64,000 nucleotides of DNA from Candidatus Ryanbacteria bacterium CG10_big_fil_rev_8_21_14_0_10_43_42. GTDB taxonomy: Bacteria; Patescibacteriota; Minisyncoccia; Ryanbacterales; 2-02-FULL-48-12. The stretch covers positions 18,854 to 82,853 of the forward strand of contig PFEF01000003.1 in assembly GCA_002793915.1 (NCBI GenBank), written 5' to 3'. The notes under the pieces were generated by a model that had not been told where the DNA came from, did not search any database, and saw only the letters and a program-made list of their open reading frames with translations. The translations under genes were made by a program, and so were the position numbers. This document shows positions 9,461 through 61,291 of this stretch, one piece after another. How positions within the stretch are numbered: position 1 is the stretch's first letter; every line of letters starts with the position of its first letter.

Positions 9461-9532
9461 CGGTCTGTAGCTCAATGGTAGAGCGCTGAGCTTATACCTC
9501 AGTGGTTGTAGGTTCGATCCCTACCAGACCGA
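9461..9532 (+). tRNA. tRNA-Ile (anticodon TAT)
   Basis: Manual fold: acceptor CGGTCTG/CAGACCG, D-arm GCTC-AATGGTA-GAGC, anticodon stem CTGAG/CTCAG with loop CTTATAC (34-36 = TAT), T-arm GTAGG-TTCGATC-CCTAC, discriminator A. Confidence 0.7.
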
Positions 9533-9539
9533 CAAAAAA

Positions 9540-22433: not shown

Positions 22434-24164
22434 ATGTCGTGGTCTCATTTCACATCCCTTCTTGTAAAAGAAGGCTATTCTTCCGCTGACTCTTTTTTTA
22501 TTGAAAGGGCTTTTATCTTTGCTGAAAAAGCCCATGCAAAACAAAAACGATCTTCAGGGGACCCTTATATGACACATTGTATTGCAACGGCAGAGCACAC
22601 CGTTCGTCTTCATATGGATGCAAAAACAATAGCGGCCGCCCTACTGCATGATACTATCGAAGATTGTTCCGTTTCCGTAAAAACACTCGAAGAACAATTT
22701 GGTGCCGATGTTGCCTTTCTTGTTGAAGGTGTCACGAAAGTATCTCACGTACGCCACAAGGGTACGCAACGTCATCTGGAATCTTTGCGAAAAATGTTTC
22801 TTGCCGTTGCGGAAGATGTGCGCGTGGTTATTATAAAATTAGCCGATCGTCTTCATAATATGGAAACGATCCAATTCGTACGTCCCGAAAAACAAGGACG
22901 TATTGCCCTCGAGACGCTGGAAATCTACGCACCCATAGCGTACCGGCTCGGCATATGGGATATAAAAAGCCGTCTTGAAGATCTTGCTTTCCCTATCGTT
23001 TACCCCGACGAATATAATATGACACGTAATTTTGTCGAGGAGCGCGTTTCCGAAGGGCGCGCATATCTTGAAAACCACGTAAAGCCGTTTTTAGAAAAAG
23101 AACTTGCGGAAGAGCGTATTCATTTTTCCTCTATAGGAACTCGCGAAAAAAATTTATACAGTACATGGAAAAAAGCTGTCTCGTATGATATGGATTTTGA
23201 TCGCATTACCGATCTTCTTGCCGTTCGCATTATCGTTTCCACCATAGAGGATTGTTATCGTGTCCTTGGCATTATTCATGTGTATTGGAAACCGCTCCCC
23301 GGACGTATAAAAGATTATATTGCTCTACCTAAACCAAACGGATATCGCAGTCTCCATACCACCGTATTTTGCATTAATAATGCCATAACAGAATTTCAAA
23401 TTCGCACGCGTGCCATGCATGAAGAAGCAGAGCACGGCATTGCCGCGCACTGGGCATATACGGAATCGGGAAAACCGAAGGGAGGAGGATCGGTAACACA
23501 CGCCACAACATGGATTCAGGATCTTCGTGAATGGCAAAATACCATAGACCCGACTGACGATGGTGAAACTCTTCTTGAGCTTCTTAAAATAGACTTTTTC
23601 CGTGATCGCATTTTCATTCTTACACCAAAGGGAGAAGCTATTGATCTTCCCGCTGGCGCTACTCCCATCGATTTTGCCTACCGAATACATACTGACATAG
23701 GAAACCATATGATAGGCGCCAAAATAAACGGAAAAATGGCACCATTTTCGGCAGAACTCGTATCAGGAGATACGGTGGAAATCCTTACCCAGAAAAAAAG
23801 AAAGCCTAGCTCCGAATGGCTTTCTTTGGTAAAAACATCTTTAGCACGCACGCAAATTCGTACCGCCCTTCGCAGGGAACCCGACACAACTCCTTCCCCT
23901 ATCCGTATTCTTCCGGATGAACACCCTCTCCGTCATCTTCATATTACGGCACGTAACCATGTAGGCCTTTTAAACGATATTTCCCGCGTATTTACCCACT
24001 TTCGTATTCATATTCAAAATATTTCCATGAACACTAATAATAAATCATTTCCGATTTTTGTGGTTTCCTTTCGTCCGCGCGATAAAAAACAATTACAACA
24101 TGTTATTACACGCCTCAAAACGATTACTGAAATTCAAACCGTTTCCGTACGTGATAAAGAATAA
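22434..24164 (+). CDS. rel: bifunctional (p)ppGpp synthetase/hydrolase (RelA/SpoT homolog)
   Basis: HD hydrolase domain (HCIATAEHT...LLHDTIED), synthetase domain (RIIVSTIEDCYRVLGIIH...YRSLHTTV), TGS region and C-terminal ACT-like tail. 576 aa. Confidence 0.9.
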   Translation: MSWSHFTSLLVKEGYSSADSFFIERAFIFAEKAHAKQKRSSGDPYMTHCIATAEHTVRLHMDAKTIAAALLHDTIEDCSVSVKTLEEQFGADVAFLVEGVTKVSHVRHKGTQRHLESLRKMFLAVAEDVRVVIIKLADRLHNMETIQFVRPEKQGRIALETLEIYAPIAYRLGIWDIKSRLEDLAFPIVYPDEYNMTRNFVEERVSEGRAYLENHVKPFLEKELAEERIHFSSIGTREKNLYSTWKKAVSYDMDFDRITDLLAVRIIVSTIEDCYRVLGIIHVYWKPLPGRIKDYIALPKPNGYRSLHTTVFCINNAITEFQIRTRAMHEEAEHGIAAHWAYTESGKPKGGGSVTHATTWIQDLREWQNTIDPTDDGETLLELLKIDFFRDRIFILTPKGEAIDLPAGATPIDFAYRIHTDIGNHMIGAKINGKMAPFSAELVSGDTVEILTQKKRKPSSEWLSLVKTSLARTQIRTALRREPDTTPSPIRILPDEHPLRHLHITARNHVGLLNDISRVFTHFRIHIQNISMNTNNKSFPIFVVSFRPRDKKQLQHVITRLKTITEIQTVSVRDKE

Positions 24165-24190
24165 CAGATGGAATGCACTATAGCCGGATA

Positions 24191-25381
24191 TTATACCGTG
24201 AACGAATCCGTATCATCTGATGAGTGTTCCGCCGATTCTACCGGCAATTGAACGGCAACAGGATCTGACTGATGAGAAGATGCGTAACGCGCTTCTTCCG
24301 CGGATATGCCGGATACGGGAGCATCCACCGTACGCACTTCTCCGCCAACCATCAATGATTCTTTCCTTTCTTCATGAAGACGCGCCATCAATCCCGTTAA
24401 ATGTTCGAATTCTTCGTCCGAAAAAAAATCTATTGAAATACGTCCTTTTCCTTCGCGCGATCTTCGCACTGTGACACGGGTTCCTAACGCACCGGCAAGT
24501 TCTGTCTCTACCTGTTTTGTTGTTGTGTCGTAAGCACGCCTTTCTATCTGTACTTTTCGCTCAGGAGAAACACCCACACGCGAAACAATATCATGAAAAG
24601 CGCTCTCCACATCGCGCGCAGAAAGACCACTGGCGAGAATCGCATGAAAGAGATTTTTTTGCTCTTCCGGCGCATGTGCCAAAGAAATAAGAGGACGTGC
24701 TTGCCCTTCCGTAAGACGTCCTTGTATAAGCGCATCCTGAACATATTCGGGAAGCGCCATCAAACGTACTGTATTTGCAACCGACTCACGACTCTTTCCC
24801 ACCCGAGCGCCCACTTCCCGCGGTGTTAACTTGAATTCATCCATTAAACGCTTATATGCGCGCGCCTTTTCCATCGGATTCAAATCTTCCCGCTGTAAAT
24901 TTTCTATAAGCGCAAGTTCCAGTTTTATTTTATTAGACTCCTCCCGCCGGACAATGGCAGGCATTTGTTGTAATCCTAGATAGGAAGCGGCGCGATATCG
25001 CCGCTCTCCCGCAATAATTTGATATTCGACACGTGTTCCGGTAGGAACATCTATTTCCTCTTTAGAAACAACAATTGGTTGCAGTACGCCATACTGTCGA
25101 ATGGAGTCGGCCAACGATTTTATTTTTTCCTCGTCAAAATGCGTCCGCGGCTGATGCGGATTTGGTTTTATTTTTGCTACCTCCACCCAAAAAACACTCT
25201 CTTTGGGCTGTTCTTGTGCGATAGGGTTTAGTTGTTCGACCACCGAAGACTCCGAACGATACACTGAAGGAGAAGAAGTCCCGGAAACACCGACTTCTTC
25301 TCCTGAAGTATGTTCCTTTTTTCTCTCATTATCATCCCCTCCCAAAAGAGCATCGAGTCCTCGTCCTAAAACATTAGACAT
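24191..25381 (-). CDS. parB: ParB/Spo0J-like chromosome partitioning protein (with acidic C-terminal extension)
   Basis: ParB box GERRYRAA, HTH region (TPREVGARVGKSRESVANTVRLMALP). Immediately downstream of parA on the same strand. Confidence 0.85.
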   Translation of the reverse strand: MSNVLGRGLDALLGGDDNERKKEHTSGEEVGVSGTSSPSVYRSESSVVEQLNPIAQEQPKESVFWVEVAKIKPNPHQPRTHFDEEKIKSLADSIRQYGVLQPIVVSKEEIDVPTGTRVEYQIIAGERRYRAASYLGLQQMPAIVRREESNKIKLELALIENLQREDLNPMEKARAYKRLMDEFKLTPREVGARVGKSRESVANTVRLMALPEYVQDALIQGRLTEGQARPLISLAHAPEEQKNLFHAILASGLSARDVESAFHDIVSRVGVSPERKVQIERRAYDTTTKQVETELAGALGTRVTVRRSREGKGRISIDFFSDEEFEHLTGLMARLHEERKESLMVGGEVRTVDAPVSGISAEEARYASSHQSDPVAVQLPVESAEHSSDDTDSFTV

Positions 25382-25407
25382 AATATAAACAGTTAAATTT
25401 TATATAG

Positions 25408-26172
25408 TTATCCTACTAGTCCGATTATTTCTTCTGTTAATTGGCAATATGCCTTGGCGCCATGAGAATAAGGGTCATATTCAAGGATTGTTTTTCCAAA
25501 ACTAGGCGCTTCCGCCAATTTAGTATTGCGTGGAATGACCGTTTTAAACACGTAATCCACCGCATTACCCCTCACCTCCTCCAGTATAGCACGAGAAAGC
25601 TTTGATGTTCTATCAAACATGGTAAGAACCACCCCCATGACGCCAATTTTTTTACGCGTCCGCATATTCAATTTTTGTATAGTACGCACGAGCTCGGTCA
25701 TCCCCTCTAGGGCATAATAATCGCACTGCACCGGAATAATAACATGATGAGCGGCAAGAAAGCCGTTAATAGTGAGAATACCCAATCCCGGCGGAGCATC
25801 AATAAAAATAAAATCATATTCGCGCGTAATAGGCAAAAGCGCACGATCAAGGTATGTCTCACGATACCGCGTATTCGCAAGTTCCACAGCGGCGGCGGCA
25901 AGATTGGGAGACGACGGCATAAGAAACAGATTGGAAATATTTGTTTTCTTTATCGCATCGCGCGCCGGAATAGCACCGATTATAACTTCATATGTTGTGG
26001 GTGTATCATCCATTCTTTGTATGCGTCCGGAAAGAGCGGATGTGGCATTCGCCTGCGGATCAAGGTCCACTAAAAGTACTTTTTTCCCGAGTGCCGCCAT
26101 ATATGCCGATATATTCAGTGTCGTTGTTGTTTTCCCCACACCCCCCTTCTGATTTGCAAAAATAATAGTCAT
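25408..26172 (-). CDS. parA: ParA/Soj partitioning ATPase
   Basis: Deviant Walker A KGGVGKTTT, LVDLDPQANAT. 254 aa. Confidence 0.9.
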   Translation of the reverse strand: MTIIFANQKGGVGKTTTTLNISAYMAALGKKVLLVDLDPQANATSALSGRIQRMDDTPTTYEVIIGAIPARDAIKKTNISNLFLMPSSPNLAAAAVELANTRYRETYLDRALLPITREYDFIFIDAPPGLGILTINGFLAAHHVIIPVQCDYYALEGMTELVRTIQKLNMRTRKKIGVMGVVLTMFDRTSKLSRAILEEVRGNAVDYVFKTVIPRNTKLAEAPSFGKTILEYDPYSHGAKAYCQLTEEIIGLVG

Positions 26173-26210
26173 TCAATCAGTATAAAGAAGAACGCCCAAA
26201 GAAGAAAGAA

Positions 26211-26239
26211 TTGAAAACTGTGTAAAAACAGGGTATATT
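26211..26239 (+). promoter_or_regulatory. putative sigma70-type promoter for tRNA-Leu (TTGAAA-17-TATATT)
   Basis: -35/-10 hexamers with a 17-nt spacer about 20 nt upstream of the tRNA 5' end. Confidence 0.4.
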
Positions 26240-26258
26240 GCATACACATATATTGCTT

Positions 26259-26342
26259 GGGCAAGTGTCGGAATTGGTAGACGATCACGACTCAAAATCG
26301 TGTGGCCGTATGGCCGTGTGGGTTCGAGTCCCACCTTGCCCA
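26259..26342 (+). tRNA. tRNA-Leu (anticodon CAA)
   Basis: Acceptor GGGCAAG/CTTGCCC, anticodon stem CACGA/TCGTG with loop CTCAAAA, long variable arm GGCCGTATGGCC, T-arm GTGGG-TTCGAGT-CCCAC. Confidence 0.85.
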
Positions 26343-26429
26343 CTCTTTACCAGTAAGATTTGGTTGTGGTTGTTTCGCACGAGTGCGCCAACCGCGACGA
26401 TGTGTTGAGGGTAATTCATATACGTTAAA

Positions 26430-27296
26430 CTAGAGAGTAGATATCCTACTGTCTTGTAAAAATGGTGTAATATCTTCTGCTGGGATTTCGCGACCAATTG
26501 AAACTTCGGGTGTATATATTACGCCATGCCAGTCGCTTCCACCGGTGATATAGAGCCCCAATTTCCTGCCGAGATTTCTTAATGTGATGACTTCGTCTTC
26601 GGAATGTTTTGGGTAATAGACCTCTAATCCTAAAAGTCCCTCCTTTGCGAGGTTGGCTAATATTTCCTCATATGCTACATGTCCAAGCTTTCGTAACTCT
26701 CTCCCAGAATGAGCCAAGACAGGGATGCCACCTGCGCTGGCGATAAGCTGAAAACTTTCTTTTGGCGTCATCATCCACGTATCATCTTCCTGTTCTATAA
26801 AAACATACTTCCTCAAAACATCTTTAACGGTGATATTTCCTTTAAGATGTTGCGCTACTATTCTCGCGATAGTGTTTCTGCTCACATAGGCTTCATGTCC
26901 GGCGAGTCTGAGCGATTGAAAATCCATTCTCAGGTCTGGAAGTAATTTGTTAATTTTATCAATTATTGCGATTGCCCGACGATTATAGCCATCAATCGTT
27001 CGCTGCAGATTCTTATTCAATATTTCTCGATTGAGTTGTCTGCCATACCCAAGGATATGCAAAGAGAAGTTACTTCCAGACATACGATACAATGTAGAAA
27101 TTTCTACACCATCGATATACTGAATTTGGTTCTTTTCCGCATACGTTTTTATACTTGCGGTGTCTGGAAGGAAATTGTGATCAGTAATTGAAAAGATGGA
27201 GGTTTTCTTGTTTCTTGCCTTATCTATGATTTCTTCCGGCGATAACTCACCGTCGGAAAAATATGAATGTGTGTGCAAATCTAAATACATATACAA
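26430..27296 (-). CDS. PHP-domain phosphoesterase (TrpH/YciV-like)
   Basis: N-terminal LDLHTHSYFSDGELSPEEIIDKA matches the PHP metal-binding motif of TrpH/YciV. Further His/Asp ligands (ITDHN, HILGYG, LAHSG, GGSDWHG). 288 aa. Confidence 0.75.
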   Translation of the reverse strand: MYMYLDLHTHSYFSDGELSPEEIIDKARNKKTSIFSITDHNFLPDTASIKTYAEKNQIQYIDGVEISTLYRMSGSNFSLHILGYGRQLNREILNKNLQRTIDGYNRRAIAIIDKINKLLPDLRMDFQSLRLAGHEAYVSRNTIARIVAQHLKGNITVKDVLRKYVFIEQEDDTWMMTPKESFQLIASAGGIPVLAHSGRELRKLGHVAYEEILANLAKEGLLGLEVYYPKHSEDEVITLRNLGRKLGLYITGGSDWHGVIYTPEVSIGREIPAEDITPFLQDSRISTL

Positions 27297-27359
27297 ATGA
27301 TATTTTATATTATAACAAAAAGCTCCCGTCGGGTTAAATTTTCCGGCGGGAGCGTGGGT

Positions 27360-28133
27360 TCAACGCGAGCGAAGTGTATGACACAAGGACTGGTAATCTG
27401 CCTTAAACTGATCGCCGTGAATAACGAGATTGAAAAGACTCTCATACCAGTTCATGAGCAGCACGCCACGCTCAAAGTCTATTGACTTTTTGCAAGCGGA
27501 CAAAAAATCGATGGCAGTCGTTGAATCCACTCCATAGAATCGATCAAATGCCTCGAAGCATCCCTCAAGATTCGATGGAGGGATGACATAATCTGTTCTT
27601 AGCCTGCATGCTTGATATGTAAGCGCATTTCCTGGACCGTGTAGCAACTTGCTGACGAATATTCTTCCTTCTTCTCCGTTAAATGACCGTACGAGTTGGC
27701 GTCTACATATCGTTCTGTTGTCATGAAGTACATAGGCTGTAAGGTCAGCGAAGGAAAATCTGTGGACAGCGGTACTAATTGGTGTCACGCGGAAAACACC
27801 TTTGATGTCGCGACCGAAGACCAGTGATGGATTATATCGCGGATACCACAATGGAGAATTCCGATCAACAAACTCATCGACCGTGTGAGGCACCAGGTCT
27901 GTATCCTGGCCGGTCTTTTCCGTCAACGAGCGCCGTATGTCTCGCAATGTGCGATAATGCTCCGCATCCACGATACCGAAATTGCTCTCTACAATGACAG
28001 CAACATCCATATCTACGGATAGTTCGTTGTAGAGCCATGATCCATATATCCTAGCACTCGAGATGCAAGGTGCATTTTGCAGGACTTCTTGAACATTCTG
28101 AAGAATTAGTTCGCGTTCTTCATTCATTTTCAT
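27360..28133 (-). CDS. Pol-beta-superfamily nucleotidyltransferase with C-terminal helical domain (ANT/AadA-like minimal NTase architecture)
   Basis: hG[GS]x8-DhD motif (IYGSWLYNELSVDMDVAV). A candidate third acidic residue lies about 40 aa later (QDTDLV). About 150 aa of helical C-terminal domain. Strong GGAGGT SD 3-4 nt before the ATG. 63 nt upstream of, and co-directional with, the PHP gene. Confidence 0.55.
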   Translation of the reverse strand: MKMNEERELILQNVQEVLQNAPCISSARIYGSWLYNELSVDMDVAVIVESNFGIVDAEHYRTLRDIRRSLTEKTGQDTDLVPHTVDEFVDRNSPLWYPRYNPSLVFGRDIKGVFRVTPISTAVHRFSFADLTAYVLHDNRTICRRQLVRSFNGEEGRIFVSKLLHGPGNALTYQACRLRTDYVIPPSNLEGCFEAFDRFYGVDSTTAIDFLSACKKSIDFERGVLLMNWYESLFNLVIHGDQFKADYQSLCHTLRSR

Positions 28134-28271
28134 TACCTCCGTTTTGTGGTTGTAAATGTACTGCTTTGAGAAACCCGCTATGAATTTCTCACGGCGCTAC
28201 CGTAACACAATTTCTCACTTGATACAAAAGACCCTGCGTTAAAAATCCGCCGTGCATTCCTCATTGAATCC

Positions 28272-28288
28272 TGCCGCCCGCGCGTCAG
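28272..28288. repeat. GC-rich 17-18 bp motif TGCCGCCCGCGCGTCAG (left copy), embedded in an imperfect GC hairpin (CTGCCGCCC...GGCGGGCAG)
   Basis: Near-identical to 31113-31130. The two copies bracket the MTase-REase-Vsr cassette as imperfect direct repeats. Local GC is far above the surrounding sequence. Confidence 0.5.
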
Positions 28289-28518
28289 CGGAGGCGGGCA
28301 GCGGGGCGGGAGAGCGTACGATTTTGGTCAGAGCCACCACACGTTCCGCGCGGCACATTGTCAGCGATAGTATTGGTATAAAGCCAAAAAATTGCTAAAA
28401 TGTAGTTAGCGGAACATCCACAGGTCAAAACTAGCTGCTTTTTTCTGAAAAACCATATAGAATTAAGTTATGGGCGTTGGCCGTCCGGCGCGCCAAGCCC
28501 AAAATTAAGCTAATTTTT

Positions 28519-29535
28519 ATGAGCAATAAAACTTACAAAACTTTAGACCTGTTCGCCGGTATCGGAGGAATCCGAATGGGCTTTGAACGCGCCGGATTTG
28601 AAACAGTTTTTTCCAACGACTTTGACCCTTACTGCAAGCCAACCTACGATCTGAATTACAAAACGGCGCAGCTCGCTGTTGGCGACATTCAAAAGATAAA
28701 AAGTTCGTCTCTGCCTGCTTTTGATATTTTACTCGGCGGATTTCCTTGTCAGCCGTTTTCTGTTGCGGGTTACCGGCGCGGATTTCTTGATACAGGCAGA
28801 GGCGATTTATTTTTTGAAATTGTAAGGATTCTGCGGGACAAAAAGCCGTCCGCGTTTTTGCTTGAAAATGTAAAAAATCTAAAATCACACGACAAGGGCA
28901 AAACATTCAAAATTATTTCGGACGCGCTTGCCGACCTCGGCTATCATGTCAAAGTGAAAGTTCTAAACAGCATGGAATACGGGAATGTCCCGCAGAATCG
29001 CGAGCGTGTTTATATCGCCGGTTTCAAATCAAAAAAAGCGCATGATGTTTTTGAATTTCCGGAGCAAACACCGCTTACAAAAAGTATTTCCGATATTTTG
29101 GAGGAGTCGGTGGACAGTAAATATTACTACAACGACAGCACGCTTTATAAGCAACTCAAAGAAGCGATAAAATCACCGAATACAGTTTATCAATGGAGGC
29201 GAGCTTATGTGCGCGAGAATAAAAGCGGTGTTTGTCCGACACTTACCGCAAATATGGGAATGGGCGGACACAATGTTCCGCTTGTCAAAGATAAAAAAGG
29301 AATTCGGAAACTTACACCTCGGGAATGCGCGCGTTTGCAGGGCTTTCCCGAAAGTTATAAACTTCCGAAAGATTTGCCGGACACCAAGCTGTACAAACAG
29401 TTTGGTAATTCTGTCACGGTTTCCGTGGTAGAGAGGGTCGCAAGGCAGATGATGAAAGCCCTGCAAACAAACAATAATTATGTTTATAGAGAGCCAGTCA
29501 AAAGAACAACGAGAGTATTACGAACGGCTGCTTAA
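28519..29535 (+). CDS. DNA (cytosine-5)-methyltransferase (Dcm-type)
   Basis: Motif I LDLFAGIGGIRMGF, motif IV GGFPCQPFSVAG, motif VI ENVKNL, motif VIII/X region. Start set at the Met at 28519. The 3' end overlaps the next ORF by 56 nt. Confidence 0.9.
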   Translation: MSNKTYKTLDLFAGIGGIRMGFERAGFETVFSNDFDPYCKPTYDLNYKTAQLAVGDIQKIKSSSLPAFDILLGGFPCQPFSVAGYRRGFLDTGRGDLFFEIVRILRDKKPSAFLLENVKNLKSHDKGKTFKIISDALADLGYHVKVKVLNSMEYGNVPQNRERVYIAGFKSKKAHDVFEFPEQTPLTKSISDILEESVDSKYYYNDSTLYKQLKEAIKSPNTVYQWRRAYVRENKSGVCPTLTANMGMGGHNVPLVKDKKGIRKLTPRECARLQGFPESYKLPKDLPDTKLYKQFGNSVTVSVVERVARQMMKALQTNNNYVYREPVKRTTRVLRTAA

Positions 29536-30646
29536 AGCGGTCGGTTCACTCTCAAAATTATTTTCCGAAGCGCCGGAGCCGTATATTGCATACCGCGCAG
29601 CGGAAAATTTGTTTTGCAAGGCGTTTGAAGCCGAAAACCTTTCGCGTTCGGATGCTTCCGCTGATGCCTCAAAGAATAAAGTCGGTTTCGGAATAAAAAC
29701 ATTTTTGCACAAGAACGGAAAGTCGTTTGAAAAAATTGCCGAATTCAACAGCGACCACTCGCTTTTTCGCGCACTCGGCACCGAAGAAAAAATCAGAAAA
29801 ATTGCAGAGCTTAGAAATGAGCGCATAGAAACGACAAAGCGCATTTTCGGGCTTGAACAAATTATTTACCACTGTATAACGCGGCAGGTCGGAAAAATTC
29901 TTGTCTACGAAACTCCGGCTCCGCTAATTAAAATTGACGAAATAAAAGACCTGAAAGCGAACGGAAACACAATCCAGTTTTCCGACCCGTCCGCAGAGTA
30001 TTCTTTCAATGTTGCAAAAAGCACCCTGTATAAGCGGTTTATTACGCCCGAAAATGTGCTTCTTGAAGTTCCGGTTAGAATTCTTGAGGACCCGTTTGAC
30101 GAGATTGAAAAACTTATAACAGAAGCGGGACTAATTTTTGCTCCGATAAAAGTCCAGCCACATGTATTTCTTCCGCTGTATTCTACGCGGGGAGGAGATA
30201 AAAAGGTTCCTGAAAAAAGCGGACTTAATCAGTGGAACGCGAGTGGCCGTCCCCGCGATCCGAACGAGATTTATATTCCGATACCGGCATGGCTACACAG
30301 AAAATTTCCGAACTTCTTTCCTCCCCGCGACCAAGCATTTGAACTCACTTTGCCCGACAGGGCGACAATGAGCGCAAAAGTTTGCCAAGACAACAGCAAG
30401 GCGTTAATGAGCAATCCAAACTCTGCTCTGGGCAAATGGCTTTTGCGCGATGTTCTCAATCTTTCGGAGCGGGAACTGCTGACTTATGACAAACTTCAGG
30501 CAATCGGGCTTGATACTGTCGTTATCTACAAGACTGATAATCATACTTATGACATTGATTTTACGCGCATTGGGTCATACGAAAAGTTTTTGAATGAAAA
30601 CGGTGAATCCGGCGAGGAGGAAATCTCTGACGATGAGGAGGAATAA
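29480..30646 (+). CDS. putative type II restriction endonuclease (assigned by position between the C5-MTase and Vsr; catalytic motif not verified)
   Basis: 388-aa ORF with no recognisable enzymatic motif by eye. Acidic C-terminal tail (GESGEEEISDDEEE). Confidence 0.45.
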   Translation: MFIESQSKEQREYYERLLKAVGSLSKLFSEAPEPYIAYRAAENLFCKAFEAENLSRSDASADASKNKVGFGIKTFLHKNGKSFEKIAEFNSDHSLFRALGTEEKIRKIAELRNERIETTKRIFGLEQIIYHCITRQVGKILVYETPAPLIKIDEIKDLKANGNTIQFSDPSAEYSFNVAKSTLYKRFITPENVLLEVPVRILEDPFDEIEKLITEAGLIFAPIKVQPHVFLPLYSTRGGDKKVPEKSGLNQWNASGRPRDPNEIYIPIPAWLHRKFPNFFPPRDQAFELTLPDRATMSAKVCQDNSKALMSNPNSALGKWLLRDVLNLSERELLTYDKLQAIGLDTVVIYKTDNHTYDIDFTRIGSYEKFLNENGESGEEEISDDEEE

Positions 30647-30651
30647 TCGCT

Positions 30652-31050
30652 ATGGACAAAATAACGAGGGAACAACGGAGCCGAAATATGGCGGCTATTC
30701 GGAGCAGAGGAAATCAGACTACGGAAATTGCTTTTTCAAAACTGCTCCGAGCAAACAAAATTACAGGCTGGCGCAGACATAGCCGCCAAGTTTTCGGCGT
30801 TCCCGATTTTATTTTTCAGAAGGAAAAGGTGGCGATTTTTATAGACGGCTGCTTTTGGCACGGGTGTCCGCGGTGTAAAACACAACCAAAAACAAATACA
30901 AAGTATTGGAAACAAAAAATCGCCAACAATCAAAAAAGAGACAAGCAGGTCAAAAAACAACTTATTCGGGACGGGTGGAAAGTTTTTCGGTTTTGGGAGC
31001 ACGAGGTAAAAAAGAATCCGAATCGTGTTATGGACAAGATTGTTTTTTGA
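30652..31050 (+). CDS. vsr: very short patch repair endonuclease Vsr
   Basis: 132 aa. FIDGCFWHGC motif, conserved N-terminal TREQRSRNM and KLL...GWR regions of Vsr. Confidence 0.9.
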   Translation: MDKITREQRSRNMAAIRSRGNQTTEIAFSKLLRANKITGWRRHSRQVFGVPDFIFQKEKVAIFIDGCFWHGCPRCKTQPKTNTKYWKQKIANNQKRDKQVKKQLIRDGWKVFRFWEHEVKKNPNRVMDKIVF

Positions 31051-31112
31051 CCTTTCCGCCGCAAATTTAGGCGAACAGGCAAAAAGGAAGGGGATTGGGG
31101 GGAAGGAATTTT

Positions 31113-31130
31113 TGCCCGCCCGAGCGTCAG
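31113..31130. repeat. GC-rich motif TGCCCGCCCGAGCGTCAG (right copy of the direct repeat flanking the R-M/Vsr cassette)
   Basis: 17/18 identity with 28272-28288 after a 1-nt gap. Sits in a GC-rich patch (GGGGATTGGGGGGAAGG) just after the vsr stop. Confidence 0.5.
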
Positions 31131-31322
31131 ATTTCGTTTCTGCCACGCGAAGCGCGGCAATCGGTCAGATGTTTCGTTCAAAAAATGTTCGAGCAGAGTC
31201 GTATAATTCCACCAGATAGCCCCTCAAAAATCAAAAAGTTTTGTGTTGGTGTATTTATACAACCACGCTCGAACGCATTTTACCAAGAATTAAAAATACC
31301 CGTAAAAAATCCTTTACAAACC

Positions 31323-32723
31323 CTATGCGTTTTCCTGAGCATCAAGAAACACTCCCATCCTGTTCCATTTTTGCCACCTAAGCTCCGACTTGGTGACGAT
31401 TTTTTTTATGCTTTTTAAAAGGGCTTGGTACTCTACCAAATCCATAAAATAGAATAACAGCCACGCAGTTGGTGCCAACAACACCAGATTTCGATGAAAT
31501 TTTACCTTCGGATCAGAAATTATTTGAAGTACTATTACTCCCGTTAGCAGTGTAATGACAAATGCGAGTGGTACAAAGTCATTTGTATAAAACGTATATG
31601 TATAAAAGATTATGAGCAGAATACCCTCGCATAACAGTAAGAGTTCCGCAAAAAGAGCTATCGGAAGAATAAGAAAGCTTAAGTAAGATTTATGCGTCTT
31701 TCTTAAACTAAAAAAAAGACTTCGGTGTTTCCAAAATGTGAGCAACCGACCAAGCTTCCAACGAAGGCGTTGCTTACACAAACTCATAAAATCTGATGGT
31801 CCCTCAGTAAACACATACGCATCGGATGCGTAACGAACATGATACCCGAAAGCTTGTAATCGTGTAGAAATTTCAATATCTTCAGTAATCATATTTACAT
31901 CAAAATTACCGATTTCGGCGAACACGCTTTTTCTGTATGCGGCCGCGGCACCTCCAACTATATACACAGCGTTAAACAGTGAGTCTGCTCGTTTAAAATA
32001 AAAGCCGTAAAGATACTCGAGTTGTTGTATTAAACAAATTGGATTTGATCGATTACCAATGACAACGTTTCCAGCAACAGATGCAACGCGCATATCGGCA
32101 AAGTGTTTTACAATATTCTTAATGGCATTTTTATCCATAATGCTATCTGCATCAACGGTCATAACGATCTCATTAACTGCAACTTCGAGCGCTTTATTTA
32201 ATGCTCGTGCCTTGCCCCCATTTTTAATTTTCAGATAACGAATTTGTACCCCCGAATAAAGATTCTCTTTTTGACACTTGTTCAAAAAATCTGTCACTGT
32301 TTTGTGTGTATTGTCTGTTGATCCGTCATTTACCACCACAAGTTCCATCTTTGGATATTTTGTGTTTAATACGGACTTTATCGTCTTCATAATCCCAACC
32401 TCTTCATTCCATGCAGGAATTATAACCGAAACGCTTGGGAAAAAGTTTTCTTGCCTTCGTATCGATCTGGCGTGTTCAACTACAGAATAAAAAGGTGCTA
32501 TAAGTAACTGTATAAAATATTTTAGGATAATTGGGGCAAATAAAAGCAATACTAAAAATCGAATCGACTCAAACCCTTCAAGGGGTACAAAATCTTTTGA
32601 CCACGCAAAATAAAACACCAGTATTGTTGGTATATAAAGAAATAAAACAAACGACACAACAACTAAGGATTGTTTAAAATTACGGAAACTCATCATATAG
32701 CTTAAGTTACAAATATGACCCAT
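31323..32723 (-). CDS. processive family-2 glycosyltransferase (PgaC/IcaA/NodC-like polysaccharide synthase), membrane protein
   Basis: GT-A fold signature SVIIPAWNEE...VVNDGSTDNT, DAD (TVDADSIM), KQRLRWKLG (QxxRW). Transmembrane helices at both ends. 466 aa. Confidence 0.8.
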   Translation of the reverse strand: MGHICNLSYMMSFRNFKQSLVVVSFVLFLYIPTILVFYFAWSKDFVPLEGFESIRFLVLLLFAPIILKYFIQLLIAPFYSVVEHARSIRRQENFFPSVSVIIPAWNEEVGIMKTIKSVLNTKYPKMELVVVNDGSTDNTHKTVTDFLNKCQKENLYSGVQIRYLKIKNGGKARALNKALEVAVNEIVMTVDADSIMDKNAIKNIVKHFADMRVASVAGNVVIGNRSNPICLIQQLEYLYGFYFKRADSLFNAVYIVGGAAAAYRKSVFAEIGNFDVNMITEDIEISTRLQAFGYHVRYASDAYVFTEGPSDFMSLCKQRLRWKLGRLLTFWKHRSLFFSLRKTHKSYLSFLILPIALFAELLLLCEGILLIIFYTYTFYTNDFVPLAFVITLLTGVIVLQIISDPKVKFHRNLVLLAPTAWLLFYFMDLVEYQALLKSIKKIVTKSELRWQKWNRMGVFLDAQENA

Positions 32724-32936
32724 TTAATTACTTTTGTCAATAAATATTTATAAATCGCCGAATCAGATCTGGATTAAATAAGTGCAGGTTCCGGCTTCTT
32801 CTCTGCATCTTACCCGGACAATTTGTCGTTCAAATGTTTTTACGCATTCCATTAAACCAATTATATTCGTGTTTTTCAAGCATAAAATCCAACGATCTTA
32901 ACGATTGTATGAGTTTGACTCCCATCCGTAGCACAC

Positions 32937-32965
32937 TTTACAATACTATCTTCATATAGTATCAT
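32937..32965 (+). promoter_or_regulatory. putative promoter (TTTACA-17-TATCAT) with an embedded 7-bp-arm palindrome ATACTAT-n6-ATAGTAT (operator-like)
   Basis: The hexamers have ideal spacing 17-23 nt upstream of the small ORF at 32982. The palindrome occupies the spacer. Confidence 0.35.
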
Positions 32966-32981
32966 ACAAAAAATTGCCCCC

Positions 32982-33179
32982 ATGGAGGATGCGATGCAAC
33001 CAAAATCAGGGAACCGGAAAAGCGCATGTACTGCGCCTAAACATCCACGGCGTTTAATACGCCATTGGCCGGATAGGGCTCATAAGGTTAGGGTTCACGT
33101 CAGTAATCTACCCCCTGACCTTCGAGATGGCCAGCGTACGTTATGGAAGGAGAGATGCGGCGATGTTGTGTTTGTCTAA
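32982..33179 (+). CDS. small basic hypothetical protein (65 aa)
   Basis: ORF between the promoter/palindrome and the next small gene. An alternative start ATGCAACC is preceded by GGAGGA. Arg/Lys/His-rich. Coding status uncertain. Confidence 0.3.
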   Translation: MEDAMQPKSGNRKSACTAPKHPRRLIRHWPDRAHKVRVHVSNLPPDLRDGQRTLWKERCGDVVFV

Positions 33180-33203
33180 ATCATTTTAAGAAGGAGGAAA
33201 ATT

Positions 33204-33422
33204 GTGGCCGATAAAATGACGCGACGTCAAGTCATTCAGATGGCTTATGTTGCACCTCTCGTGCTGACTTTACCAGTAACCCCGTCATTTGCCATGACGG
33301 GGTCGGGGGCTCCCCATTCCCGGAGACGTCCCCACATAAACAGACCACGTATAACTGGGAGAAGGAATGTGACAAAAATAGTCACTCAATCACATCCCGG
33401 TAGCCGAGTAGACAGAGAGTAG
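33204..33422 (+). CDS. small protein (~70 aa) with twin-arginine-like N-terminal hydrophobic region
   Basis: Perfect AAGGAGG SD upstream. A rho-independent terminator abuts the stop. The peptide is MTRRQVIQMAYVAPLVLTLPVTPSFA|MTG... followed by a strongly basic 40-aa tail. Confidence 0.45.
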   Translation: MADKMTRRQVIQMAYVAPLVLTLPVTPSFAMTGSGAPHSRRRPHINRPRITGRRNVTKIVTQSHPGSRVDRE

Positions 33423-33448
33423 GACGTTCCCAGGAACGTCCTTTTTTA
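33421..33448 (+). terminator. rho-independent terminator (AGGACGTTCC-cag-GAACGTCCT + TTTTTT)
   Basis: 9-10 bp GC-containing stem plus T6 immediately after the small-gene stop. Abuts the folD stop codon (33446-33448), which lies inside its T-run. Confidence 0.6.
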
Positions 33449-34285
33449 TACGTTTATACCACACAATATAAGTAAATTTTTAAATACATTTGCAACCACA
33501 ATAGGTCCTACGCCGCCGGGCACGGGCGTTATGAGAGCGGCTTTCTTTTTTACCGAATCAAAATCCATATCCCCCCGTAACACTCCCTGCACCGGTGTTG
33601 TGCCTACATCAATGGCGCACACTCCTTCTTGTACCATATCTCCCGTAATAATCCCCGGAGATCCCGCACCTGTAACAATAATATCTGCATTTTTTGTGTA
33701 ATATATGCTGTCTTTCGTATACTTATTTATGGTTGTGATGGTGGCGCCTTCACGCAAAAACCATTCGCTAACCAATTTCCCCACCAGCATACCAGACCCT
33801 ACAACAACAACACGCTTGTCCCGCAATACATACGACGCATCATGGCGCAATAAAATTTCTTTTACCGCTCCCACTACGGGCGGCAGAATAATTGATGACC
33901 CCACATTAAAATCTCCAATGCTCCGGGCAGATAACATATCGACGTCTTTCTCCGGCGTAACAGCATTGAGTACTTTCTGTACGTTTCCTACACTATCCGC
34001 AAGAGGCAACTGTACAATAACGCCATTATTTTCCGGTACATGCACAAGTTCTGAAACGCGATCGCGCAAAGAACGTGCCGACATTGCATTCAGTACCTCA
34101 TCATACACCCGCACATCTACGCCTATTTTTTTGCCAAATTCCTCTTTTTTGCGCACAAATGTCTTTGTTGCCGGATCATGCGTCGTAAGAACAATAGCTA
34201 GTCGTAATTTTTTACGGGACATCTGAATCTTTTCCCGCAGAGTGTCCGCAATATCTGCCGATATTTTTTTGCCGTCAATTATCAT
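33446..34285 (-). CDS. folD: bifunctional methylenetetrahydrofolate dehydrogenase/cyclohydrolase FolD
   Basis: 279 aa. Conserved VVGSGMLVGK NADP-binding region and PVPGGVGP motif. Confidence 0.9.
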   Translation of the reverse strand: MIIDGKKISADIADTLREKIQMSRKKLRLAIVLTTHDPATKTFVRKKEEFGKKIGVDVRVYDEVLNAMSARSLRDRVSELVHVPENNGVIVQLPLADSVGNVQKVLNAVTPEKDVDMLSARSIGDFNVGSSIILPPVVGAVKEILLRHDASYVLRDKRVVVVGSGMLVGKLVSEWFLREGATITTINKYTKDSIYYTKNADIIVTGAGSPGIITGDMVQEGVCAIDVGTTPVQGVLRGDMDFDSVKKKAALITPVPGGVGPIVVANVFKNLLILCGINV

Positions 34286-34344
34286 AGCGTATTACCACCT
34301 TAACCTGTAGATGATTAATTTATATTTTCCCATACCTTTTTCCG

Positions 34345-35523
34345 TTATTGGGCACATTTCCGCACTTCAGCCAAAAGAATGTCGTCAATATTTTTTGCTA
34401 TTCGAATCATATCCTTTTCCCGCATTCCCTGGGTTGTGACGGCGGCCGTACCTAGCCGAATGCCGGAGGGATCAAACGGACTACGAACATCAAACGGTAT
34501 AGTATTTTTATTCACAATAATACCATTCTCCTCTAAGCAATTACTTGCCACTGCTCCCGGCACACCCCGAGACATTGTATCTACCAGCAATAAATGATTA
34601 TCCGTTCCTCCTGAAACAATACGCCATCCTCGCTTCTTTAATTCCCCCGCTAATACCTTTGCATTGGCAACTATATGACGAGCGTATGTTTGAAACGACA
34701 AACGCATAACCTCATGAAGCGCCACTGCAACGGCGGCAATTTGATTTTCATGCGGTCCTCCCTGAAGACCCGGAAATACAGCTTTGTCGATTTTTTTTGC
34801 GTATTCCCGACGTGAAAAAATAAGAGCACTGCGCGGTCCGCGGAGCGTCTTATGCGTTGTCGTTGTTACAACATCCGCGTAAGGAAAAGGCGTTGTATGA
34901 GCGCCCCCCGCAACAAGACCCGCAATATGCGACATATCTACCATCAAAAGCGCCCCGCATGCATCTGCCATAGCGCGGAATTTTTTCCAATCGATTTTGC
35001 GCGGATATGCCGTAAAGCCGGCTATAATAAGTTTTGGTTTTTCCTGTATTGCAATCTTTTGCAATGCATCATAATCCAAGCGTTCCGTTTTTTTATCCAC
35101 TCCATACGGCACCTGCTTCCATATTTTCCCCGTAATACTGACTGCCTGCCCATGCGTTAAATGTCCTCCCATGGGAAGCTCCATGCCCATAATCTTTTCT
35201 CCCGGAGGAACCAATGCCAGATATACCGCAAGATTTGCCGGAGACCCTGAATAAGGCTGTACATTTACCGTCCATTTTTCCGGATTCACCTTAAATGCCG
35301 CGAGTGCTCGCCTTTGGCACAGAACCTCAATATCATCAATAACAGCATTTCCCCCATAGTATCGCTTATGCGGATATCCTTCCGCATATTTATTATTCAG
35401 AACTGATCCAAGAGCTTCAAGCACGTCAGCAGACACATAATTTTCAGATGGAATAAGGTTGATAACGCCTTTTTGACGTTTTTCTTCCGCGTGTATTAAT
35501 TTTTGAATTTCTTTGTCTTTCAT
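34345..35523 (-). CDS. glyA: serine hydroxymethyltransferase
   Basis: 392 aa. PLP-lysine region TTTTHKTLRGPRSALI, the YSGSPANLAVYLA segment and the PMGGHLTHG stretch. Confidence 0.95.
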   Translation of the reverse strand: MKDKEIQKLIHAEEKRQKGVINLIPSENYVSADVLEALGSVLNNKYAEGYPHKRYYGGNAVIDDIEVLCQRRALAAFKVNPEKWTVNVQPYSGSPANLAVYLALVPPGEKIMGMELPMGGHLTHGQAVSITGKIWKQVPYGVDKKTERLDYDALQKIAIQEKPKLIIAGFTAYPRKIDWKKFRAMADACGALLMVDMSHIAGLVAGGAHTTPFPYADVVTTTTHKTLRGPRSALIFSRREYAKKIDKAVFPGLQGGPHENQIAAVAVALHEVMRLSFQTYARHIVANAKVLAGELKKRGWRIVSGGTDNHLLLVDTMSRGVPGAVASNCLEENGIIVNKNTIPFDVRSPFDPSGIRLGTAAVTTQGMREKDMIRIAKNIDDILLAEVRKCAQ

Positions 35524-59923: not shown

Positions 59924-61288
59924 ATGGCAGAAGATCCCGTCACGTACATATATCTGATCGTTGTGTTGATTATCGGTCTCCGCTCACTGTACACGTTCGC
60001 AACATTCAGCAGTACTTTTTGGTGGCTCAAACGCCAACGCGTCAAAACTGTGGAAAATACAGATAAACATTTTGTTGTCGTGATCCCGGTGTTGCGCGAA
60101 CAACGGGTGCTTCGGGAAACTGTCGAGTGGTTTTTAAGTCTCGACTATCCACGCGATAAGCTCACCATTGCCATAGTTACAACAGAACAAGAGTACACGA
60201 CCAGAGCAGACGGACAGACAACCGTTGAGCTAGCGGCATTGCTTCATGATGAATACGGACATGCTGTCTGGCACATACACTATCCTGAAACGAGAGGAGA
60301 GAAAGTCCATCAACTAAATTATGCGATCAGCGTGATCTTGGAAGAAGACGCGCTGGCAGACAGTGAGATGTTCATTGCACTGTATGACGCAGATTCCAGA
60401 CCGCATCCGCAAACGTTAAAATGGGTGTCTACGTTATCAGTTGCCAATCGTCGTCAGCAGATTTTGCAGCAATCGGCCATTTTTCTGCAAAACTTCAGCG
60501 ACATGAAGTCAAGAAATGGTTTTATTGTTGCGAAGCTGTTGCAGGCGAACGCCATTCTGCAAACGCGATGGACGTTAGCGCATGAAATTCCCCGTATCCT
60601 TCGACAAGGTTACGCATTACGCAGGTGGAATCGACGATTGTTTCTGTCTCACTGTGTAGGACATGGTCTTTTTCTTCGGAAAGATGTCATGCGAGAGTTG
60701 CGGCGACTACCAACAGAAACATTGACCGAAGACCTCTTTATGGGATTCGTCTTGTCGCTCTTAAGAGAGCCGATTCAGCTTGTGCCTGTGTTTGAATCTG
60801 CCGACATGCCGTATTCTTTGAAATCTGCATTGTTGCAGAAATACGTATGGTTCTATGGCCCGATGGAGCACAGAACCTATGCGAGCGTTTTTCTGCAAAC
60901 CAATCCGGAAAGAGCGCCGAAGTGGCTAGTAAATTTGTTTGCCGTGAGGGGGTTAATACCCGCGGCAGCTTGGCTCACTTCAGGGTGGATGGTGCTCTTT
61001 GTGATTGGATTTACGGCATTTTCCGGAACAACAGGGACGATAATACTTTCAGCGAGTACGCTCATCGCGTATCTAAGCACCTTTGGGCTTACGATACAGC
61101 GGTATGCACTACTCAATGAGATCACTGGAAGACGTGAGGTAGTACGGACAGGAGAAGGGATATTGGTTTTTCTTTTCCTTATCCCGATTTTTGTTCTGCA
61201 TAGTTTGCCTCCGCTTCTATCGGTGACAACCAAGATCCGGTCACTCGTGACCAGCATCAGACCATTTAAACCCAAAACTGAGAGGTGA
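59924..61288 (+). CDS. processive family-2 glycosyltransferase (PgaC/IcaA-like synthase), membrane protein
   Basis: GT-A signature FVVVIPVLREQ, DAD (LYDADSRPHP), QTRW (QxxRW) in AILQTRWTLAHEI. N-terminal transmembrane helix and about 4 C-terminal transmembrane helices. AAGGAG SD 7 nt upstream. Confidence 0.75.
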   Translation: MAEDPVTYIYLIVVLIIGLRSLYTFATFSSTFWWLKRQRVKTVENTDKHFVVVIPVLREQRVLRETVEWFLSLDYPRDKLTIAIVTTEQEYTTRADGQTTVELAALLHDEYGHAVWHIHYPETRGEKVHQLNYAISVILEEDALADSEMFIALYDADSRPHPQTLKWVSTLSVANRRQQILQQSAIFLQNFSDMKSRNGFIVAKLLQANAILQTRWTLAHEIPRILRQGYALRRWNRRLFLSHCVGHGLFLRKDVMRELRRLPTETLTEDLFMGFVLSLLREPIQLVPVFESADMPYSLKSALLQKYVWFYGPMEHRTYASVFLQTNPERAPKWLVNLFAVRGLIPAAAWLTSGWMVLFVIGFTAFSGTTGTIILSASTLIAYLSTFGLTIQRYALLNEITGRREVVRTGEGILVFLFLIPIFVLHSLPPLLSVTTKIRSLVTSIRPFKPKTER

Positions 61289-61291
61289 CGG

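Follow-up and report, generated by a model that had tools for sequence, protein, structure and literature searches.

What occupies the space between a leucine tRNA gene and folD in Candidatus Ryanbacteria bacterium CG10_big_fil_rev_8_21_14_0_10_43_42, and did it arrive there as one island or in pieces? The window analysed here is a 64,000-nucleotide (nt) stretch of contig PFEF01000003.1, and the locus opens at tRNA-Leu(CAA) (26259..26343, plus strand; ARAGORN; Rfam RF00005, 55.4 bits), whose 3′ end is directed toward a variable block. The initial annotation described an accessory islet of two modules, one with a Pol-beta nucleotidyltransferase (NTase) and a TrpH/YciV-like PHP phosphoesterase, the other a restriction-modification (RM) cassette of a DNA (cytosine-5) methyltransferase (dcm), a restriction endonuclease (REase) and Vsr. 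The open reading frame (ORF) listing, ARAGORN, Rfam and profile searches placed all five genes and the tRNA where they had been reported, but the modules are not co-directional: the PHP and NTase genes are read from the minus strand, the RM genes from the plus strand, and the two sets diverge from a 376-nt spacer. Our reading, to which we assign a probability of roughly 65%, is that the 26344-33445 gap, which runs from tRNA-Leu(CAA) to folD, is a hotspot of gene flux filled piecemeal by cassettes that lack mobility genes, namely the RM cassette, an NTase-PHP pair tentatively assigned to RNA ends, and a glycosyltransferase gene (GT2) with a small ORF. Small cassettes would have landed there one by one, with no integrase-borne island involved.

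The gap lies within a conserved gene order. GlyA-FolD-gap-tRNA-Leu(CAA)-(ParA)-ParB-RelA-TopA is kept in distant relatives from the candidate phyla radiation (CPR; comparison loci L006, L007/L056, L009/L058 and L010), and the tRNA-ParA/B-RelA-TopA half is seen in many further loci; tRNA-Leu(CAA) adjoins parA/parB in L006, L007, L009-L014, L054, L055 and others. In the window the left core flank is parA (25408..26172, minus strand; Pfam AAA_31/CbiA/ParA), which is syntenic with the tRNA in the CPR relatives, then parB (24191-25381) and, left of it, topA and relA/spoT; the right core flank is folD (33446..34285, minus strand), followed by glyA (34345-35523, minus strand). In the relatives the FolD-to-tRNA gap is 0.5-1.9 kb long and holds a gene for a PAP2-like membrane phosphatase, with or without small ORFs, and the PAP2 gene abuts the tRNA also in L013, L014 and L110. 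The gap in the window is 7.1 kb long and holds different genes, which are absent from the syntenic locus of L006, L007, L009 and L010, and no PAP2 homologue was found in the window's 64 kb. The glycosyltransferase had been taken for the core right flank, but it is missing where the relatives keep the synteny, and no part of the window has a lower GC, so the variable block extends to folD at 33445 and covers about 7.1 kb rather than 4.9 kb. The proposed comparison with relatives thus confirmed that the block is absent from the syntenic gap, although the relatives are distant. Within the equivalent gap of L009, an ORF at 8407-8763 encodes a DUF559/Vsr-like endonuclease domain, in keeping with the use of this gap as a landing site by small selfish genes across the wider lineage.

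Genome comparison gave each of the two modules its own limits. The NTase-PHP unit (26414..28250, minus strand) matches L122 3976-5811 in reverse orientation at 93.1% DNA identity by blastn, with no homology past either end. L122-L124 were found through a PHP homologue at 93% identity; their contigs have no tRNA and no RM genes, and the upstream genes differ from those in the window. The RM cassette with its promoter region (28387..31055, plus strand) matches L046 6945-9578 at 82.8% DNA identity over its full length and L051 1939-4203 at 81.8% over window positions 28387-30639 (blastn), and the left end of homology is window position 28387 in both comparisons. In L046-L050 the dcm-REase-vsr cassette stands between tRNA-Ile(GAT)/EF-P and a gene for a VTT-domain protein, and in L051 dcm and the REase gene, without vsr, follow tRNA-Leu(GAG)/rplS. 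Because the modules occur apart elsewhere with limits of their own, the block contains at least two separately mobile units.

The composition of the block also differs between its parts. GC is flat over the five genes (0.43-0.45), whereas the strand-symmetric 4-mer distance of 28250-31250, which covers the RM genes, is the most deviant in the whole window (z up to 3.75) and that of GT2 reaches z 2.7; the NTase-PHP composition is native-like (z 0.1-0.6). The compositional deviation expected of acquired DNA therefore holds for the 4-mers of the RM cassette and GT2, but neither for the GC of the five genes nor for the NTase-PHP unit.

If the NTase-PHP pair and the RM cassette had entered en bloc as one defence islet at the 3′ end of tRNA-Leu(CAA), the block would be expected to carry signs of integration. 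It does begin 1 nt past the tRNA, with the tRNA 3′ end toward it, its genes are missing at the syntenic locus of the relatives, and in two other CPR genomes an RM cassette of the same type follows closely on a tRNA gene. However, no integrase or recombinase is encoded in 26344-33445, where all ORFs of at least 100 aa have other assigned functions, and no att-like repeat of the tRNA 3′ half was found in 26351-34000 (best local alignments 17-18, compared to a shuffled mean of 19.1 and maximum of 26). The two modules are found separately elsewhere, they differ in 4-mer composition, and the NTase-PHP pair adjoins an RM system in the window only, one of eight contexts. A single island is accordingly very improbable in our view, and the idea that the tRNA served as its integration site was not borne out.

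The block could instead be ordinary chromosome content, ancestral to the lineage and lost in the relatives. The native-like composition of the NTase-PHP unit and the flat GC over the five genes would fit, and with relatives as distant as these (ParB at most 67% identical) loss is possible. Yet every relative that retains the synteny has a different occupant, PAP2; the RM cassette combines the most deviant 4-mers with about 82% DNA identity to copies at unrelated loci; the NTase-PHP unit has a copy with 93% DNA identity between unrelated flanks; and GCWGC, the most likely recognition site of the RM system (see below), is about 8-fold enriched in the block versus the core (P 1e-5). Common ancestry of the block has, in our estimate, a very small chance of being right, and the sequence comparisons support the block as accessory and horizontally mobile.

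Three points weigh against piecemeal filling by mobile cassettes. No closer relative with sufficient flanking sequence turned up, and no true empty site was found. The genomes compared for synteny are only distantly related (ParB 44-67% identical): the nearest ParB in the one-genome-per-species GTDB set is 48-53% identical (Parcubacteria, Giovannonibacteria and Saccharibacteria metagenome-assembled genomes), and the closest metagenome ParB, 60-62% identical by best segment and 66-67% by tblastn re-scoring, stands on contigs that stop 39-178 nt past their tRNAs. Exact-protein look-ups for closer relatives returned the same population only. Finally, given its native-like 4-mers, the NTase-PHP unit may be an old resident.

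The GC-rich flanking repeats that had been cited for horizontal acquisition contributed little, since they amount to a 15-nt direct repeat with a 14/15 match, CCGCCCGCGCGTCAG at 28274..28288 and CCGCCCGAGCGTCAG at 31116..31130 (both plus strand). A score of this size was reached in 10 of 500 shuffles, and a target duplication was rejected because the repeat is only 15 nt long, can be attained by shuffling and has both copies beyond the limits of the conserved cassette. The stability of the GC-rich hairpins did not exceed that of shuffled sequence (z -0.2 to -1.1).

Further observations concern the edges and the interior of the block. An exact 18-mer, ATCCGCCGTGCATTCCTC, lies at the NTase-side homology boundary in the window (28245..28262, plus strand) and at L122 3943-3960, with opposite orientation relative to the NTase gene in the two; the L122 copy is inside an ATCCGC...GCGGAT inverted repeat. 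The 18-mer could be a small inversion or recombination site. Metagenome contigs identical to the window end within the block, three independent assemblies at 27476-27480 in the NTase gene, one at 28848 in dcm and one at 30390 in the REase gene, and database variants of the REase are 97-98% identical without an exact match. These contig ends and variants hint at strain-level variation in the block. The RM cassette is found 85-220 nt downstream of a tRNA in both other genomes (tRNAs at L046 6790-6861 and L051 1633-1717). A tRNA lies within about 500 nt of the NTase-PHP pair in four of eight contexts (binomial P 4e-4 to 5e-3 under rough assumptions), with tRNA genes at L042 5544-5617, L118 4418-4506 and 7238-7309, and L119 4331-4401. 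The tRNA adjacency of both cassettes could be an insertion-hotspot effect or a functional link to tRNA. Between the tRNA and the PHP gene, a spacer hairpin (26344..26413, plus strand) is outside the 93% homology with L122; the segment 26344-26425 on the plus strand has a folding energy of -28.3 kcal/mol (z = -2.78), and the hairpin probably terminates transcription of the tRNA and/or the convergent PHP gene. Scanning 24000-35000 against Rfam at E up to 1 gave no RNA gene besides the tRNA.

The RM cassette was recognised by PADLOC as a trio, as the initial annotation had it. The dcm gene (28510..29535, plus strand) encodes a protein matching PF00145 over positions 1-323 of 324 (E 5.3e-95), TIGR00675 at 348 bits (cut-off 100.65) and PADLOC MTase_II (E 5.9e-129); PCQ and ENV motifs are visible in the sequence, the nearest solved structure is M.HhaI (E 2.8e-61), and the start ATG at 28510 agrees with the starts in L046 and L051. 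The REase gene (29480..30646, plus strand) overlaps dcm by 56 nt and encodes 388 aa, a length equal to that of its homologues, with a match to PADLOC REase_II PDLC03479 covering 10-376 of 376 (E 1.5e-108). Vsr, a very-short-patch T:G mismatch endonuclease (30652..31050, plus strand), is matched by TIGR00632 (124.4 bits, cut-off 97.85), PF03852 (E 2.8e-20) and the PADLOC Vsr profile. Alignment of the three cassettes defined an upstream control region (28387..28509, plus strand) with a TG-extended -10 element and a promoter-like site at 28373-28401. The three genes probably make up a complete and active Type II RM cassette. The C5-methyltransferase would mark the host DNA, the endonuclease would read the site through its C-terminal domain and cut unmethylated invader DNA, and Vsr would repair the T:G mismatches that arise by deamination of 5-methylcytosine.

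The endonuclease is a Type II enzyme of the NgoFVII family. Residues 240-353 form a B3-like DNA-binding domain (PF20731, E 1.9e-14) that resembles the B3 domain of R.NgoAVII (4rd5/4rdm; Foldseek E ~4e-6, TMt 0.62-0.66), and the whole chain aligns to R.NgoAVII 4rct (Foldseek E 4.5e-7) and to BfiI 2c1l. NCBI names the homologues 'NgoFVII family restriction endonuclease'. The AlphaFold2 (AF2) model is mediocre, with a mean predicted local distance difference test score (pLDDT) of 69, and the family profile had no match among the PDB sequences. For the N-terminal part, the link to the NgoFVII type consists of the full-length alignment to 4rct and the names of the homologues, with nothing further positive. 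Set against the link are the low confidence of the model at the N-terminus (pLDDT 42-60), the lack of a Pfam match for residues 1-226 at E up to 10, and the lack of an invariant HxK in an alignment of 28 sequences. D58, D62, K65, K73 and H131 of the endonuclease are invariant. No gene for a helicase/ATPase (N/H) subunit stands beside the REase gene, as the cassette consists of dcm, the REase gene and vsr and is followed by GT2 on the opposite strand; the ATP-dependent CglI/NgoAVII/BceSIV subtype was ruled out on that ground. The family is large and mobile. It has more than 5000 homologues, of which the 120 best listed span several phyla at 73-98% identity; a protein from a Methylomirabilota metagenome-assembled genome matches the REase at 85% identity, and homologues with 90-91% protein identity occur on contigs of other CPR genomes. 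Plasmid homologues, at 30-55% identity over most of the protein, adjoin C5-methyltransferases, and a homologue on a Priestia plasmid has the same Dcm/REase/Vsr content plus a C-protein.

Motif depletion in the hosts pointed to a recognition site. GCWGC is the most depleted 5-mer in the window, with an observed/expected ratio of 0.27 for the whole window and 0.16 outside the block, while the flanks of the L046 and L051 cassettes have ratios of 0.25 and 0.26, respectively; pooled over the three hosts the ratio is 0.20, compared to 0.71 pooled over 16 control CPR loci (P ~1e-6). GCSGC was not depleted in the same comparison. A GCTGC at 28434-28438, upstream of dcm, is invariant in all three cassettes, and methyltransferases related to M.NgoFVII include many GCWGC enzymes (PMC10734518). 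From the depletion in three host genomes, the invariant promoter GCTGC and the sites of the related enzymes, we infer that GCWGC is most likely the recognition site. Other counts fit this site less well. The window cassette retains five GCWGC sites, compared to one or two in the L046 and L051 copies, the depletion of the core implies long exposure, and the depletion may come from an earlier or different GCWGC system. The block holds 8 of the window's 16 sites, which gives the ~8-fold density above the core, and the sites retained in the cassette fit a recent arrival in a genome purged earlier by similar systems.

Two other motifs are under-represented in the window. GGCC was observed 74 times versus 170 expected (observed/expected 0.44, z -7.4), evenly spread, and CTCAG/CTGAG has an observed/expected ratio of 0.28. 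These depletions suggest past or present exposure to HaeIII-like and CTCAG-specific systems elsewhere in the genome.

While the RM system is of a known kind, the NTase-PHP pair is an undescribed, tightly linked pair of enzymes. The NTase gene (27360..28133, minus strand; gene-caller start 28127, 255 aa) encodes a two-domain, ANT/KNTase-like protein of the Pol-beta superfamily. Its Pfam Polbeta match is weak (21.8 bits, under the 26.9 cut-off) and PF18765 is matched by 39 of 46 family members, but the catalytic residues G31, S32, D41, D43 and D79 are invariant in the 46 homologues and correspond to hG[GS], DxD and a third carboxylate, and on these sequence features the enzyme is catalytically intact. 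H83, T84, E87, D138, R144, R145, Q146, R149, K162, H165 and G166 are invariant as well, and the family has a conserved C-terminal motif of its own, DNRTICRRQ...SKLLHGPGNALT. The AF2 model is of high confidence (pLDDT 96.6), and its best Foldseek matches are AAD(9) (E 2.5e-4), AadA, LinB and ANT(4′), at TM ~0.3, with Hailong HalB (E 0.03) and the MNT antitoxins matching more weakly. Neither phmmer nor the family profile found a match among PDB sequences at E up to 10. The family comprises 89 homologue clusters, all of ~255 aa and from CPR- or DPANN-type sources, and a full-library profile search returned 46 representatives among 1.84 billion sequences with no tail toward other NTases. A viral origin found no support, as there was no locus in IMG/VR, no PHROG match and no fold match in BFVD below E 0.016. 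Upstream of the gene, 117 nt (28134-28250) are conserved at 93% with L122 and not in more distant homologues, and in them the motif GAGAAAT(T/C)C recurs and a GAGAAA...TTTCTC hairpin immediately precedes the ribosome-binding site; this element could be an operator or leader.

The PHP gene (26430..27296, minus strand; gene-caller start ATG 27290, 286 aa) encodes a TrpH/YciV (RNase AM)-like phosphoesterase (PF02811, E 4.9e-11) whose best solved relatives are Cv1693 (2yb1, E 1.4e-18) and RNase AM (7ug9). The DLHxHS, SDG, TDH, GVE, HI.G, AHxG and SDxH blocks are identical to those of 2yb1, and we take their His, Asp and Glu residues to be the ligands of a trinuclear metal site. The superfamily assignments made for both proteins at the outset were thus upheld by the invariant catalytic residues of the NTase and by the alignments of the PHP protein to 2yb1 and 7ug9. 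NCBIfam models for pAp phosphatase (NF041577, 128 bits, cut-off 400, E 3.7e-37) and RNase RNM (NF047791, 108 bits, cut-off 375, E 4.7e-31) both match below their equivalog cut-offs, and PHROG matches were to generic PHP/polymerase entries only. Some 75 clusters with at least 38% identity make up the discrete clade of this protein, beyond which identity drops to ~33% versus ordinary TrpH proteins. The searches did not show the two proteins to be ordinary metabolic enzymes: the PHP protein falls far below both equivalog cut-offs, and the NTase belongs to a very small family that lacks annotation.

The two genes travel together. They are adjacent in eight of eight contexts (the window, L039, L040, L042, L043, L118, L119 and L122), overlapping by 14 nt in L118 and lying divergent and 26 nt apart in L119; the usual layout of the unit is a co-directional NTase-then-PHP operon. 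Identities to the NTase and PHP homologues drop in parallel (76/59, 70/58, 63/53 and 53/47%), and for 24 clusters of the PHP clade the longest contig is equal in size to that of an NTase cluster. The surroundings of the pair differ in every context. In L119 the pair lies between the CCA-adding enzyme and RNase J, and in L043 a serine recombinase and a TrwB-type coupling protein are nearby. One family member, P0219 (L120 5001-6185), is an NTase-NUDIX fusion without a PHP gene nearby, directly downstream of archaeal exosome genes (Rpp14, proteasome alpha, SBDS, Rrp4, Rrp41 and Rrp42). An MNT-HEPN toxin-antitoxin system was rejected, because the partner is a PHP protein in all eight contexts and only the N-terminal domain of the NTase is MNT-like.

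RNase AM is a 5′-to-3′ exoribonuclease that matures rRNA 5′ ends (PMC7261194), degrades di- and oligoribonucleotides (PMC11528712) and takes off FAD caps (PMC9410882). Because the PHP protein is nearest to RNase AM and pAp phosphatase, and because of the neighbours in L119 and the NTase-NUDIX fusion by the exosome genes, we lean toward an action on RNA or oligonucleotide ends, a tentative assignment that we hold at somewhat less than even odds. NUDIX enzymes of the NudC/RppH type process RNA 5′ ends. In this scheme the NTase would transfer a nucleotidyl group onto the end of an RNA or a nucleotide, and the PHP enzyme, of the trinuclear-metal TrpH/RNase AM type, would remove 5′-terminal nucleotides, caps or 3′-phosphates. 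This assignment is tempered by its basis in two neighbourhoods, one fusion and a family resemblance, and the tRNA adjacency may reflect insertion preference, not function. A more specific version, which we regard as unlikely, makes the pair a horizontally mobile 'writer-eraser' module by which CPR bacteria and DPANN-like archaea would set and remove nucleotidyl marks at RNA ends, or alternatively a new nucleotide-signal defence. In the first form the ANT-like NTase would provide RNA, possibly tRNA, with a nucleotide cap or tail, and the RNase AM-like PHP enzyme would take off the cap or 5′ nucleotides, a part played in one lineage by a fused decapping-type NUDIX domain.

A defence role was implied by the suggestion that defence genes cluster at this locus, which is upheld for the RM trio and not for the NTase-PHP pair. 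A PADLOC run recognised the trio, and PADLOC-DB 2.0 gave no significant match for the NTase or the PHP protein (best PDC-M37B, E 0.003, and PDC-S09, E 0.005-0.008). As a new two-gene anti-phage system, with the NTase as signal-maker or target modifier and the PHP protein as nuclease effector or reset enzyme, the pair would owe its place beside the RM genes to defence-island clustering. Its sporadic, rare and mobile occurrence would suit such a role, as would the mobility genes near it in L043, the weak fold likeness of the NTase to HalB, and the PHP domains in some known defence proteins, with the NCBIfam TrlF model matching the PHP N-terminus at E 1e-7. On the other hand, neither protein has a recognisable sensor or effector domain, the NTase lacks viral homologues and viral fold matches, and a known defence gene adjoins the pair in the window only, the seven other contexts showing housekeeping or RNA-metabolism genes. 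We therefore give a defence role a low probability.

The fold matches raise a third option, in which the pair modifies a small molecule, either by ANT/Lnu-like nucleotidylation of an antibiotic with the PHP enzyme hydrolysing the adduct or by-product, or in nucleotide salvage. The best fold matches are indeed aminoglycoside and lincosamide nucleotidyltransferases of the same two-domain layout, and TrpH-type enzymes hydrolyse pAp and related small nucleotides. However, the TM-scores are low (~0.3), even the family profile finds no sequence match to a solved ANT, and the conserved C-terminal residues are mainly basic (R144, R145, R149, K162 and H165), which suits an anionic substrate better than cationic aminoglycosides. 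No resistance NTase is known to us to depend on a PHP partner, and RNA is suggested by the NUDIX fusion as well as by the neighbouring exosome, RNase J and CCA-enzyme genes. A small-molecule substrate is thus improbable, and an action on RNA ends remains our preferred assignment for the pair.

The low-GC GT2 gene and the small ORF complete the block, and stand at the place of the relatives' PAP2-like membrane phosphatase gene. GT2 (31323..32723, minus strand; GC 0.35-0.36) encodes a processive glycosyltransferase of the PgaC/IcaA-like kind (PF00535, E 7.6e-32; TIGR03937, 203 bits, below the 422 cut-off). The small ORF (33204..33422, plus strand; 72 aa) has an AAGGAGG ribosome-binding site, a hydrophobic, signal-peptide-like N-terminus (RRQVIQMAYVAPLVLTLPVTPSFA), an intrinsic terminator at 33421-33442 and no Pfam match. 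Three GGCC sites lie at 33067-33206, two upstream of the small ORF and one over its start, despite the avoidance of GGCC, and the segment 32966-33200 folds no better than shuffles. Elsewhere in the window, 59924-62975 holds two GT2 glycosyltransferases and a polysaccharide deacetylase downstream of tmRNA-infC-rplT, with a 4-mer z of ~1.9 and GC of 0.47-0.485, and may be another acquired glycan cluster; the last 4 kb (60-64 kb) contain 4 of the 16 GCWGC sites. A second island at the tmRNA gene was rejected, since the next genes, infC and rplT, are core and the mild deviation comes from the GT2/deacetylase cluster further on. A tRNA-Ile with anticodon UAU (TAT) lies at 9461-9533, and the Kuenenbacteria locus L027 has a tRNA-Ile(TAT) too; this tRNA is an uncommon way for bacteria to decode AUA.

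Taken alone, the RM cassette is routine, one more member of a very large endonuclease family moving between phyla, and the interest of the locus lies almost wholly in the NTase-PHP pair. Piecemeal filling would mean that CPR genomes gain accessory genes as cassettes of 1.8-2.7 kb, without mobility genes, that land in tRNA-adjacent gaps between core genes and whose limits can be mapped to the base through genome comparison. The NTase-PHP unit is rare and compact, its two genes are strictly linked and its active sites are intact, and it is confined to organisms whose RNA-processing equipment is minimal. Should RNA ends be its substrate, these lineages would have a further, new enzyme pair for RNA maturation, decay or capping, and if it serves defence, it would be a new type of defence system.

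Compared to known systems, the pair recalls bacterial PolX, in which a Pol-beta-superfamily NTase is likewise combined with a PHP phosphoesterase and the Pol-beta-like and PHP domains together process and extend nucleic-acid 3′ ends (PMC2665239). PolX is one fused protein, whereas here there are two separate small proteins; the window NTase is ANT-like and without the DNA-binding subdomains of PolX, and the PHP protein is of the TrpH type and not the PolX type, so the resemblance is one of theme only. With the ANT/KNTase-type enzymes (AadA, AAD(9), LinB and ANT(4′)) the NTase shares a minimal Pol-beta N-domain (GS...DxD...D), an all-helical C-domain and a length of ~255 aa. It differs from them in having no relationship at the sequence level, in belonging to a tiny CPR/DPANN family and in its obligate PHP partner, in place of which one member has a NUDIX fusion. 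The PHP protein has the fold and the length (~285 aa) of RNase AM/YciV/TrpH and Cv1693, but it falls into a separate clade far below both equivalog cut-offs, and while RNase AM is not known to be paired with a specific NTase, the window protein and its counterparts are so in every context examined.

The RM cassette resembles the NgoFVII/AspCNI-type, NgoAVII/CglI/BceSIV and BfiI systems in having a C5-methyltransferase beside an endonuclease with a C-terminal B3-like domain (PF20731). CglI, NgoAVII and BceSIV have a helicase/ATPase partner (PMC4267653) and the Priestia copy has a C-protein, whereas the window cassette is without either. Its endonuclease also departs from the NgoFVII/NgoAVII/BfiI type in an N-terminal domain without a detectable phospholipase D (PLD) HxK motif or Pfam match, and its methyltransferase and endonuclease genes overlap by those 56 nt. 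Sites in the NgoFVII family are of the GCNGC type, and related methyltransferases and PLD-type nucleases recognise GCSGC, GCCGC or GCWGC (PMC10734518, PMC4267653); the site of NgoFVII itself is GCSGC, compared to the GCWGC that we infer here. In its manner of spread, the cassette is similar to other RM cassettes free of mobility genes: it is a discrete unit with sharp homology limits at differing chromosomal sites, with no transposase or integrase and a composition unlike that of the host. Such cassettes are known to insert into chromosomes. The present one differs from them in having a weak 15-nt repeat instead of a long target duplication, and in that the copies in the other two genomes adjoin a tRNA gene.

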